A DNA stretch of 20,000 nt from contig JBBIQV010000010.1 in the NCBI GenBank assembly GCA_037442105.1, positions 55,941 through 75,940 of the forward strand, in the 5' to 3' direction. Shown piece by piece: positions 16,961 to 20,000 of the stretch. The DNA is from Nitrospiraceae bacterium. GTDB taxonomy: Bacteria > Nitrospirota > Nitrospiria > Nitrospirales > Nitrospiraceae. The position numbers and the translations under genes were made by a program. The notes below the pieces were generated by a model. It was given only the letters and a program-made list of their open reading frames with translations, did no database searches and was not told where the DNA came from. Within the stretch, counting starts at the first letter, position 1, and each line of letters opens with the position of its first letter.

Positions 16961-17521
16961 GTGATGACTCAACTCGGCAAAGGCATTTTTCTCGTCGCGG
17001 CCCCCGCTCTCCGCGATCCCAATTTCAGGCAGACCGTCGTGCTGCTCTGCGAGCATGGGCCGGAGGGAGCATTGGGGGTCGTGGTGAATCGTCCGACCGC
17101 AATGAATCTGGCTGAAGCACTGCCGCAAATTCCGGTGATCGAGAGCCAGCGGCACGTGCTGTACTCGGGCGGGCCGGTCCAAACGAACCAAGTGATGTTG
17201 CTCTATCGGCTCGATCGAGTTCCTGACAATTCCCATCACGTGTTTGACGGTGTCTGCCTGGGCGGCAATGTCGACGTGGTCGAGCGCATCCTCACGACCG
17301 CACCGAGCAAAGACGCCTTCCGCGCCTACCTCGGCTACTCCGGCTGGGGACCCGGTCAGCTCGAAGCGGAGATGAAGACCGGATCGTGGATCACCCTTCC
17401 GGCCGACCCCACATTCGTGTTCGAGAAGGAGCCGGCCCGCGTATGGCCAGACATCCTGATTTCGCTCGGCGAGGATTATCGACGTTACGCCGACATGCCG
17501 TTCGATCCCAGCTTCAACTAA
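16961..17521 (+). CDS. YqgE/AlgH (DUF179) family protein
   Basis: LVAAPALRDPNFRQTVVLLCEH, GALGVVVNRP, GGPV and YLGYSGWGPGQLEAEM...W. Confidence 0.93.
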   Translation: MMTQLGKGIFLVAAPALRDPNFRQTVVLLCEHGPEGALGVVVNRPTAMNLAEALPQIPVIESQRHVLYSGGPVQTNQVMLLYRLDRVPDNSHHVFDGVCLGGNVDVVERILTTAPSKDAFRAYLGYSGWGPGQLEAEMKTGSWITLPADPTFVFEKEPARVWPDILISLGEDYRRYADMPFDPSFN

Positions 17522-17554
17522 AGCCAATAGCGAATAGCGAATAGCCAAGCAGCG
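17522..17554. repeat. Heptamer tandem array immediately after the yqgE stop
   Basis: AGCCAAT-AGCGAAT-AGCGAAT-AGCCAAGC-AGCG; AGCGAAT is the reverse complement of the GCTATTC-type repeat read in a shifted register. Confidence 0.7.
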
Positions 17555-17587
17555 CGCCCCACCTGTCTTCCCCGATAGAATGACAGA

Positions 17588-17616
17588 TTGCCTCCGTTTT
17601 ATGTGAGTGGTAGGGT
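17588..17616 (+). promoter_or_regulatory. Possible sigma70 promoter for the lipoprotein (predicts a leaderless transcript)
   Basis: TTGCCT (17588-17593), 17-nt spacer, TG-n-TAGGGT (17608-17616). Expected +1 is about 17623-17624, the ATG. Confidence 0.4.
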
Positions 17617-17623
17617 GCTTGCC

Positions 17624-18856
17624 ATGCGACATCTCCTTCTCATCTGTGCAGCGGCCTGGTTCGTTCTTGCTCTGTCCGGCTGCGGCGTGGCCTATACCAT
17701 CGTCAAGTCGGAAGCCAAGCTGGACCGGCTCTCGGTGCCGATGACAAAGAACCAAGTCATCGATGAGATCGGCCGGCCGGACCGTGTCCTGCGCGATGAC
17801 GGCCGGGTACTCATCTGGGAATATTCCCTCACCACCCGCAAACAATGGCTGTATGAACTGGCCCTCTGTCCTCTGTCCGTATGGGTCGGCGGCTGCGTGA
17901 TCTATCCGTTCACCAACGTTGCGGCTGAGCATCAACGCGAATATCCGTATCATGTCGTGCTCGTCGAAGACCAGCTCTGTGCCTGGGGCCCGCCGCTGGC
18001 GATTCTACAGAAACGAAAGTCCTGCACGACGCCTGGTTCCGCCCTCGCCGGCGCAGCCCGCGGTGTGGCGTCTCCACCACGTCCGGAGCCGCTCGTCACC
18101 GGCCTGGGCCCGATCAATCGGGCTACGGCAGATCGTTACAAGACGATGGCGGTGATGTTCTTCGAGGATGCACCAGGAGTTCCCGGAACGGGATCTCGCG
18201 TGGCGGGAATGGTGACGACGCTGCTGCTCGATCTGGACATCAACATAGTCGAGCGAACCAAGCTCGAACAGGTGCTGAAGGAACAAGTCTTGCGGTTGGA
18301 ACATGCGGATGACAGCGATGCCCTGCATGTCGGCAAACTGGTCGGCGCAAACGCCATTGTGGTGGGCGAAGTGCAGCAATGGGAGACGCAAGAGGCCGAT
18401 CGGCTTGGGAGGGCGTCGCTCTCGTTGAGAATGATCGATGTGGAAACCGGCCTGCTGCTCTTCAGCGGCGAAGGACACGTGACGGATACGACCGGAGACG
18501 ATCCGGAGAACCTGGCGCGCCTGATCGCCCATCGAATTCTGGCTCGCTTCGGGGCGCAGACCGGCCTGTTGGGGAGCGGCTACATCGGCGTGAACTGGGA
18601 ACTCCGCGATGTGAAAGGCTCGCGCGTCTATGTGGTCCGGGAGGTACGCAGCGGATCGGCGGCGGAGAGGGCCGGGCTCAAAGTCGGCGATCGAGTGGTG
18701 GCCTGCAACGGGGCCGCTTTGGCGAATGTGACAACCGAACAGGCGGCGAAGCGCCTCTGCCAAGTCGAGGCGGGGCAGGTGTTGCAGCTCGATGTGCGGC
18801 GAGCCGACCAGCCGATGGAAATGGTGATCACAGCCGAGAAGCGTCCGGGGCTGTGA
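17624..18856 (+). CDS. Lipoprotein with SmpA/BamE-like N-terminal motif, CsgG/HfaB-like domain and C-terminal PDZ domain
   Basis: Lipobox LALSG-C; MTKNQVIDEIGRPD...WEY. CsgG-like IVERTKLEQVLKEQ...VGKLVGANAIVVG...LRMIDVETG. PDZ GYIGV...GSAAERAGLKVGDRVVACNG. Confidence 0.85.
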   Translation: MRHLLLICAAAWFVLALSGCGVAYTIVKSEAKLDRLSVPMTKNQVIDEIGRPDRVLRDDGRVLIWEYSLTTRKQWLYELALCPLSVWVGGCVIYPFTNVAAEHQREYPYHVVLVEDQLCAWGPPLAILQKRKSCTTPGSALAGAARGVASPPRPEPLVTGLGPINRATADRYKTMAVMFFEDAPGVPGTGSRVAGMVTTLLLDLDINIVERTKLEQVLKEQVLRLEHADDSDALHVGKLVGANAIVVGEVQQWETQEADRLGRASLSLRMIDVETGLLLFSGEGHVTDTTGDDPENLARLIAHRILARFGAQTGLLGSGYIGVNWELRDVKGSRVYVVREVRSGSAAERAGLKVGDRVVACNGAALANVTTEQAAKRLCQVEAGQVLQLDVRRADQPMEMVITAEKRPGL

Positions 18857-18857
18857 G

Positions 18858-19306
18858 ATGGAATGGGCTGGCCCACTAGCCGAAGTTCTGACCGACCTTC
18901 TCGCCGATTTCAACCGCTGGGGTGTCGATTGCGCGTTGGCGGGTGGGCCTTCAGCGTCCTTGTTGAACCGCGAGCGACCGCCGGTATTGATCTTCTGATC
19001 CTGCTCGATCATCCGTCTCGCGAATCGATTCAGTCGATGTTAGCCCGCATTATTCAGTGCGCTTCTGCTGCAAAGACCAAGGAGCGAGTAGCTGGTAGCG
19101 AACAGCGAGCAGCTTGTCGATCTACATTTCTGAGCTATTTACTATCAGCTATTAGCTATTCGCTGCCGGCTTCGTTTGCGACGAACCGTCATGAATAATG
19201 CGGGCTGGCGGATCTCGAAAAGATCGAAGCGCGGAAAAACGAACTCCAAATCGACTGGGACTACGTTATACAGTGGAAAGCCAGGCTCGGACTGGAGAAG
19301 CAGTAG
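18858..19306 (+). pseudogene. Disrupted nucleotidyltransferase (Pol-beta-like, DUF6036/AbiEii-related) gene
   Basis: Frame A from ATG 18858 reads MEWAGPLAEVLTDLLADFNRWGVDCAL. After a frameshift near 18936-18944, frame B reads GGWAFSVLVEPRATAGIDLLILLD (GGxA...PRxTxDID motif, first Asp mutated to Gly). After the MITE: LADLEKIEARKNELQIDWDYVIQWKARLGLEKQ* (19205-19306). Confidence 0.8.
19042..19206. mobile_element. MITE-A: 165-bp non-autonomous element with internal heptamer hairpin
   Basis: Perfect 15-bp terminal inverted repeats AGCCCGCATTATTCA (19042-19056) / TGAATAATGCGGGCT (19192-19206). Internal arms are AGCGAGT-AGCTGGT-AGCGAAC-AGCGAGC and GCTATTT-ACTATCA-GCTATTA-GCTATTC-GCTGCCG. It interrupts a gene; no clear target-site duplication. 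Confidence 0.78.
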
Positions 19307-19371
19307 GGGCGGCCTTCTGCAAGAGAACTTCTTGGGGGGACCCGGTAGAGAAGGTGAGAAAGTCAGAGGGG

Positions 19372-19537
19372 GGCTAACGAGTCTGTAGAAAAAGCCTATT
19401 TCCGAAAATTCGACCATTGAAAACAAAGGAGTTTCTGTGTCGAGATTTTCAAAACTTTGGGTTTTTCTACAGTCTCAACGGTCCGGTTCAGCGGCGGCAC
19501 GCTGCCTTTGCGCGTCGGCTCAAACCGGTTGTTTGGC
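19372..19537 (-). other. Integron attC recombination site (65 bp when reconstructed), interrupted by MITE-B
   Basis: Minus strand without the insert: R'' GCCAAAC, AACCG, L'' GTTTGAGC, 25-nt core CGACGCGC...GCGTGCCGCC, L' GCTGAAC, CGGACC, R' GTTAGCC. This is the canonical 7-5-8-n-7-6-7 spacing. It lies 33 bp downstream of a co-oriented ORF. Confidence 0.78.
19379..19476. mobile_element. MITE-B: 98-bp element inserted in attC with 3-bp AAC/GTT duplication
   Basis: Terminal inverted repeats GAGTCTGTAGAAAAAGCC / GAGACTGTAGAAAAACCC (16/18). An inner inverted pair GAAAATTCGAC / GTCGAGATTTTC is present. AAC flanks both sides (19376-19378, 19477-19479). Confidence 0.85.
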
Positions 19538-19570
19538 CACATTTGGTAGGGTTGTCACGCGATTCTTTTC

Positions 19571-19946
19571 TCACCCGGTTGTGCGGATGGTTTTATTGAC
19601 TCCTGATTTAAGCCACTCAACACAGGTTTCAAGACAATCCGTCCAGTCGTCGTTGACGCGCATTGCAACAGGTTGGAATTTGAAAATCTTCCCGGTATCT
19701 TTAGGGTCCGGAATGAACCAATTGGCAACTGTATAGAAGAACCTGCCCCAGTCGTTCGTAGAAGGGTGAAGGGATACTGCGATGACATCAAATTCGCCAA
19801 AACGATATGGCCGAGTATCATTTCCCTCACTGTCTTTCCCGCCACGAGTCTTCTGTGTCTCGACAACCCACATTTCAGAGGCTGAACCGAACAGTTTTTT
19901 GTTCGCTTCGATTGCGCGCATAGGCTGTTTATTCTTCATACGCTGC
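19571..19946 (-). pseudogene. 3' part of a PD-(D/E)XK restriction-endonuclease-like gene cassette, 5'-truncated by IS insertion
   Basis: Open for 124 codons (QRMKNKQPM...WVVETQKTRGG...TRPYRFGEFDVIAVSLHP...). Its YxxxEFDxxAV segment resembles PD-(D/E)XK nuclease C-terminal strands. More AT-rich than the host genes. The ORF-track TTG start lies inside the IS end. Confidence 0.55.
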
Positions 19947-20000
19947 CAGTAGTGTCCCAACGTTACTCAAACAAATTCAATTGGTTGCTGGCTTCTGATG
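19947..20000 (-). mobile_element. Right end of a probable IS4-family element (terminal IR plus transposase C-terminus)
   Basis: A minus-strand frame (19998-19963) ends ...SEASNQLNLFE*. It is followed immediately by CGTTGGGACACTACTG, i.e. a 5'-CAGTAGTGTCCCAA terminus. I recognise this arrangement from DUF4372-type IS4 transposases; only 54 bp are visible. Confidence 0.6.

Follow-up and report, generated by a model that had tools for sequence, protein, structure and literature searches.

IS1111-attC elements are insertion sequences (IS) specialised on the attC sites of gene cassettes; as far as the available text describes them, they have a DEDD transposase, a seekRNA guide, sub-terminal repeats and a circle intermediate (PMC11187229). 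Group IIC-attC introns, such as S.ma.I2, are also mobile elements specialised on attC; the accessible account presents them as retroelements that lie on the R'' side and separate the gene from its attC (PMC8876359). IS1272/TnSha1, a member of the IS1182 family in staphylococci, uses stem-loop targets; the portions of the reports available give no sequence consensus, no target duplication, partial deletion of the hairpin and insertion in both orientations (PMC4923244, PMC5678879). IMU, NFM2-MITE and Correia elements are non-autonomous and moved in trans, and IHF sites are reported in MITEs; by the same partial source, IMU and NFM2 flank whole integrons, have 5-bp duplications and do not enter attC (PMC3184786). 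The IntI crossover lies between G and TT of GTTRRRY (PMC8876359), and the available text of a further study has IntI acting on the folded bottom strand of attC only (PMC11023631). IS were found inside 12% of CALIN and 23% of complete integrons by Cury et al., whose available text names neither family nor site (PMC4889954), and IS1182 targeting goes unnamed in the accessible parts of PMC12444791, PMC3971601, PMC9137128 and PMC7923331.

In this study, we analysed a 20,000-nt stretch of a Nitrospiraceae genome (the window, the terminal 20 kb of contig C10; positions are those of the window), in which a 98-bp MITE interrupts an attC site at the GTT of its R' box (Table 1). The lineage to which the MITE belongs occupies an IS1111-attC-like niche, has IS1272-like chemistry and is a member of neither group. 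Compared with IS1272, it keeps the hairpin, duplicates a fixed GTT and has an orientation set within a clade, and its transposases score 239-262 bits against the family cut-off of 270. In contrast to IS1111-attC elements, it has a DDE enzyme and terminal repeats and duplicates 3 bp at the R' GTT; its MITEs of 87-219 bp are too short and too varied for a common guide comparable to the seekRNA. Membership of IS1111-attC was rejected on the terminal repeats, the doubled GTT and the DDE families that alone were returned by Pfam and NCBIfam. Unlike group IIC introns, the lineage lands on the R' side, and gene and attC stay together; an intron was rejected for the window's element, which is inserted at R' and has no reverse transcriptase ORF and no Rfam match. 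Our main reading, which we consider more likely than not, is that the MITE was moved in trans by a DDE transposase from a divergent IS1182 lineage specialised on attC.

Table 1. Features of the interrupted attC site and its surroundings in the window.
Feature	Position	Strand	Remarks
Displaced original R' core GTTAGCC	19372..19378	-	Its GTT is the distal duplication copy
98-bp non-autonomous MITE, IS1182-like lineage	19379..19476	-	No ORF; single copy in the assembly; relatives of 87-219 bp
Distal terminal inverted repeat	19379..19393	+	Final 18 bases identical to the right ends of full IS copies L332, L334, L338 and L349, from same-phylum genomes
Degenerate IHF-like site	19422..19434	+	3 mismatches vs consensus WATCAANNNNTTR; centre 49; weak in the window's copy
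attC-proximal terminal inverted repeat, 15 bp	19462..19476	-	Equals the full IS end on C12/C28 except base 4
attC in present form	19473..19537	-	R'' 19537-19531, L'' 19525-19518, L' 19492-19486, new R' GTTGAGA 19479-19473
GTT of attC R' (IntI crossover triplet), proximal duplication copy	19477..19479	-	
Cassette ORF upstream of attC	19571..19960	-	129 aa as listed; 5' end overlaps the end of the presumed IS4-like element
End of unrelated multi-copy IS, breaks contig	19947..20000		Within 5' part of cassette ORF

The ends of the MITE are 15-bp inverted repeats with one mismatch (16/18 when extended), and AAC, which is GTT on the minus strand, stands on either side (19376-19378 and 19477-19479). 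The element is thus typical of a MITE in being short, without a transposase, and bounded by terminal inverted repeats and a target duplication; it also has the second mark of a MITE, ends in common with an autonomous IS. Its predicted hairpin (DNA, -20.4 kcal/mol, z -4.8) was equalled by 0/200 shuffles. No sigma-70 promoter or terminator was found inside it, so an outward promoter is unsupported here, and window positions 17000-20000 gave no Rfam match. The MITE is present in one copy in the assembly and in 1/61 related genomes, with no other copy in the 60 relatives examined; multi-copy relatives are present in other genomes. Single contigs of sequencing runs X1, X2 and X3 span it with zero differences, where X1 may be the source data of the assembly and X2 and X3 resemble one data set deposited twice. 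The MITE allele is not an assembly artefact. Because no empty, MITE-free allele was found among the spanning contigs of X1-X3, and no orthologous empty site in related genomes or run contigs, the GTT duplication is deduced from the family.

Read on the minus strand, the attC consists of R'', a 5-nt spacer, an 8-nt L'' with an extra base, a 25-nt variable stem, a 7-nt L', a 6-nt spacer and the GTT, and its recombining bottom strand is the + strand. This agrees with the attC geometry R''(AAC)-5 nt-L''(8 nt, extrahelical base)...L'(7 nt)-5/6 nt-R'(GTT) over 55-150 bp, and a geometry test was positive for R' and negative for the mirror reading. A covariance model was built from 25 uninterrupted attC sites, which were chosen from 41 candidates in the loci retrieved and are neighbours from the same loci as the elements tested. 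Mirror readings, element-adjacent sites and sites >75 nt were left out of training, and the covariation of the alignment was above that of 500/500 shuffles. In the 20-kb window, the model gave a single match (19473-19537, 30.1 bits, E 2.7e-6), on the right strand behind a gene, with its R' completed by the MITE's own end. The original prediction of a 98-bp inverted-repeat element at 19379-19476, inserted in a 65-bp attC with canonical boxes, was exact in its coordinates and in the length of the reconstructed empty site, and box geometry and the covariance model both put the GTT at 19479-19477 in R', where it had been expected. The prediction that the element's end leaves GTTGAGA as a usable GTTRRR held for GTTRRR; the final Y of the full core is lost. 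In the family, the distal flank has the consensus GTTAG. Taken by itself, the 61-nt attC body folds no better than shuffles (z -0.6 and -1.0), so the site is identified as attC by its box geometry and the model, not by folding energy.

In the model scan, this site is the only attC on C10, which ends 460 bp upstream. The two IntI genes of the genome (C39:23988-24926 and C1:171682-172350) both lie at contig ends, and neither contig had an attC match among the candidates scored. Within the window, no further attC was found downstream of the MITE, and the DNA beyond it is a convergent broken reading frame. This frame (18858-19306, + strand, convergent on attC) is frameshifted and interrupted, and is presumably the remnant of a nucleotidyltransferase gene; its three fragments (18858-19303) had no Pfam match and no family. 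The interruption is a second, unrelated inverted-repeat element of 165 bp (19042-19206; 24-nt arms, 83% complementary), which has many partial copies in the genome and was found in 24/36 same-family genomes. The cassette ORF belongs to no Pfam or NCBIfam family, and its leads to type II restriction-nuclease clusters are weak (0.79-0.84 only). The IS whose end overlaps it, which we take to be IS4-like from its end motif, also has its end at the ends of C10, C14, C26, C27, C31, C40 and C45, and is missing at the same place in the X2/X3 contigs.

Transposases with the expected inverted repeats are present in the same genome. An end-motif scan revealed two full elements, C12:68063-69824 (1762 bp) and C28:27156-28951 (1796 bp). 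Both have a single transposase, the same 15-bp repeat and GTT on both sides; the C12 copy lacks an in-frame start, with a break close to its 5' end. Full IS1182-like elements that share these ends measure 1.73-1.95 kb. A 219-bp MITE of the same family (C60:56-274, L011) also has GTT on both sides. No attC stem was seen in the 52 bases available upstream of it, and a cassette with an attC lies further down. The C12 element sits in an array of four attC matches (C12:64451-69881, L009), with the IS in the first attC seen and small ORFs that we assume to be toxin-antitoxin-like. Altogether, the elements of this genome have GTT on both sides in 4/4 cases and lie at the R' of a model-positive attC in 3/4. 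Genome-wide, 11 attC matches at E<0.01, one of them a training site, were obtained among the 150/1824 candidates scored, and the insertion sites on C10, C12 and C28 are three of the 11, exact to the base.

The partner transposases contain the domains DUF772, DDE_Tnp_1 and DDE_Tnp_1_6. By far the best NCBIfam model for the lineage was IS1182 (NF033551), with 239.2, 257.5 and 261.8 bits, all below its cut-off of 270 bits. A single transposase of ~450-520 aa with DUF772 and DDE_Tnp_1/1_6, and terminal inverted repeats with a short duplication (here 15 bp and 3 bp), are as expected of IS1182, in which duplications are of 2-4 bp. D141, D303 and E471 are invariant in the 5/5 lineage transposases aligned and probably form the DDE catalytic triad. 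ISPpu20 and ISPa7, two named IS1182 elements, are ~26% identical to the lineage and have other ends and no GTT/attC flanks. The proteins thus point to an IS1182-like partner from a divergent lineage, not a core IS1182 member. The element had been predicted to derive from a DDE transposon of IS1182 or IS5 type; the former is borne out by the best model, and IS5 ancestry was rejected at 43 and ~20 bits against a cut-off of 140.

The target sites of the family were surveyed in public genomes by three scans. The end-first scan used the end motif with the flank unspecified (at least 127 stretches, 80 examined); among the matches listed, GTT or AAC precedes 41 of the 84 distinct ones, and the others follow 32 different triplets and resemble chance matches in coding DNA. 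The scan for short paired-end MITEs, which sampled only 90-120 bp, yielded 79 elements from 80 examined of 88 stretches, with GTT/GTT flanks in 50/79 and GTT-like flanks in 61/79. The remaining 18 are mostly without family termini; L167, L193 and L207 do have them but lie elsewhere than at GTT. L167, at a non-attC site between CAA and CAA, shows a true 3-bp duplication. The window's MITE has its closest homologue in L193 (1497-1593), which is flanked by ATT/TGC, has no attC and is near a tRNA-like sequence; the flanks of L207 are CCT/TCC. The transposase-first scan used an alignment of five sequences as the query, since no related locus was obtained with the single C28 transposase. In the best 76 of its 635 loci, the ends adjoin GTT/AAC on the left in 51/52 and on the right in 56/57 (107/109).

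Near-junction matches of the model (38/73 and 50/147) were used to count attC sites lying exactly at the junction. At E<=0.01, there were 28/61 for MITEs and 31/53 for IS, 59/114 together; at E<=1, there were 34/61 and 38/53. No model match was at the junction in 27/61 MITEs and 15/53 IS, and some of these junctions read as attC by eye; 31-44% of family insertions have no attC there that the model detects. The geometry test found R' at 38/102 insertions, the mirror (R'') only at 0/102, and R' at 20/3000 random GTT; its scorers were over-strict or ignored 5-nt R'-L' spacers, so that the positives are lower bounds, and the covariance model superseded them. Targeting of attC by the lineage is strong, not absolute. 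The foreseen attC-targeting MITE family is therefore real, with enriched GTT and 3-bp duplications in other copies; the insertions with no detectable attC depart from that expectation.

Other insertions are stemless (L160, L181, L185, L204, L252, L254, L266, L272, L275, L281 and L283) and keep CGTT upstream and a GTTAG-like sequence downstream. Those with GTTAG downstream may be adjacent deletions, as at L201, or off-target cassette integrations. No intI was found within 1.5 kb of the stemless insertions, and no family element directly behind attI; arrival at attI therefore has no support. At L201 (1094-1599), a MITE and the final (3') third of a family transposase gene meet directly at a GTT, an arrangement that an adjacent deletion would leave. 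L036-L040 is a contig start with an inverted partial IS copy and is probably a long-read fold-back artefact.

By the labels of the sequence records, the hosts include Beta-, Gamma- and Deltaproteobacteria, Nitrospirota, Gemmatimonadota, Acidobacteriota, Elusimicrobia, Spirochaetota and others. The transposase is present in 16/301 genomes of the window's phylum and in 0/50 others of its family. It is rare on plasmids, with three matches at >40% identity, and the lineage was not found in the E. coli genomes or viral contigs searched.

Most transposases of the transposase-first set run against the cassette. The transposases of this genome run with it, as do several others and all those from same-phylum loci in which an end could be read, which rules out a single orientation for the entire lineage. 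A FastTree tree of 93 proteins, with its root placed on ISPpu20 and ISPa7, puts the 64 'opposite' transposases into a single clade nested among 24 'same' ones; this clade has a support of 0.63 (0.99 with its sister L298 included) and was oversampled by the search query. On this tree, orientation is fixed within a transposase clade and flipped once, a feature new here. The window's MITE has 'same' polarity, because full IS copies from genomes of its own phylum have a right end identical to its distal 18 bases.

Elements of the family also stack. When the spacer of head-to-tail junctions was left free at 0-8 nt, GTT/AAC filled 35/36 three-base spacers; spacers of other lengths occurred in 13 further matches, whose ends are mostly not those of the family. 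At L333/L346, L342, L365, L371, L392 and L398, one attC is followed by two or three elements with a single GTT between neighbours. In metagenomes, a search in which GTT was part of the pattern gave 66 distinct junctions, including attC-GTT-element-GTT-element-GTT and triple stacks.

The 102 distinct short elements have lengths of 87-88, 96-99, 105-109, 119, 137, 146-149, 157-159, 166-167, 176, 187 and 215-219 bp. After clustering at 65% identity, 47/55 representatives have lengths of 6-9 mod 10, and the best period is 9.9 bp (R 0.63), with 0/2000 jittered sets equally phased. MITE lengths that step by ~10 bp are new here. The IHF consensus occurs exactly in 30/61 MITE cores against 45/6100 shuffles, and in 10/28 cluster representatives against 36/5600 shuffles, at fixed positions (49-50 or 60). 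By length, it is found in 21/48 elements of 90-119 bp and in 0/52 elements of >=130 bp. The centred IHF consensus of the shortest MITEs is also new here; in the window's copy, the degenerate site is centred at the position of the exact sites in relatives of 90-99 bp.

Our main reading of trans mobilisation by the DDE transposase draws on the observed ends, R' GTT target (not R''), duplication, clade polarity, stacking and phasing of the lineage. The lineage transposase, supplied in trans, would pair both MITE ends; short MITEs would be held to whole helical turns, and those below ~120 bp would use an IHF bend. The transposase would recognise CGTT(AG) at the base of the attC stem, either on folded attC or on attC occupied by IntI, and join the element through a 3-bp staggered cut there. 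Since gene, R'', L'', L' and GTT remain together, the upstream cassette can excise free of the element. The retained boxes and the repeated insertion at one GTT suggest that the interrupted site is still usable, as had been proposed. The element would come to form the 5' end of the cassette downstream and travel along; such hitch-hiking would follow from the G|TT crossover, and is moot at the window's site because no downstream attC or cassette is present. The whole could amount to a selfish safe-harbour strategy, in which gene-free sites are renewed at each cassette capture.

A part for the integron machinery, by which the transposase makes an end-GTT-end circle that IntI integrates at attC, or IntI-bound attC recruits the transposase, is unlikely, though a serious contender. 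Taken as two enzymes in series, with the transposase yielding a circle with GTT-joined ends and IntI recombining the junction with attC at G|TT, it is doubtful; equally doubtful is its corollary that the circle junction is a secondary site and the 'duplication' a recombination core. Insertion at the IntI crossover and never at R'' alone is explained by this route as well as by the DDE route, and agrees with the use of only the bottom strand by IntI in the available text of PMC11023631. End-GTT-end junctions are common, two IntI are encoded in the genome, and a spacer inherited through the circle would fix the orientation of a lineage and make one flip heritable (64 vs 24). That last argument is weakened by the 0.63 support and the oversampling of the 'opposite' clade. 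The CAA/CAA duplication at L167, the MITE fused at GTT in a transposase remnant at L201, as expected of an adjacent deletion made by a transposase, and the conservation of the putative DDE residues all speak for the DDE transposase instead, and other IS1182 members reach hairpins without an integrase, as the accessible part of PMC4923244 describes.

It is improbable that the transposase reads only CGTT(AG), and that harmless attC insertions survive where genic ones are purged. The insertion-site word fits such a plain preference, with C before GTT in 82/88 and A and then G after it in 73/88 and 70/88 (the sequences are related, and these counts, like those of the surveys above, overstate independence), as does its persistence at stemless sites; stacking would follow from the C-GTT that the end of the element itself provides. 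Yet the genome holds 72,273 GTT and 270 CGTTAG sites against 11 attC matches (150/1824 candidates scored), and 3/4 insertions are at attC. Moreover, R'' also offers GTTAG on the other strand and was never hit alone (0/102), and more than half of the junctions have an attC match exact to the base. A chance palindrome, terminator, gene-less cassette or assembly artefact, which the single assembly copy, the presence in 1/61 related genomes and the nearby contig end might suggest, is hardly credible and is refuted by ends in common with transposase-bearing elements, homologues in other phyla, the lack of an attC of its own and of any terminator or Rfam match, and contigs of three runs that span the MITE unchanged.

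No published description of an attC-targeting IS1182-like lineage was found in the literature searched, which was thin on subscription papers. Sonbol and Siam (2022) reportedly recorded many IS1182 elements in or near halophile integrons, and Siguier et al. (2015) are said to have mentioned insertion of IS1182 members at the base of stem-loops; the lineage may be partly anticipated by either. It may have been overlooked because plasmid and E. coli collections contain almost none of it.

On our main reading, the lineage would join IS1111-attC elements and group IIC introns as a third, mechanistically distinct attC-specialised class, the first to have a classical DDE enzyme and MITEs. Structure-guided DDE targeting could be tested on it, as could length phasing and the use of IHF by natural MITEs, and it is perhaps a site-specific insertion tool. 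Should the lineage depend on the integron machinery, the IS and its phased, IHF-bent MITEs would behave as parasitic pseudo-cassettes, stacking at a single crossover point and moving from host to host on cassettes. An element that lies on the IntI crossover triplet yet preserves the boxes can shape cassette arrays across many phyla, with possible effects on downstream cassette expression, on deletions and on fragmentation into CALINs.
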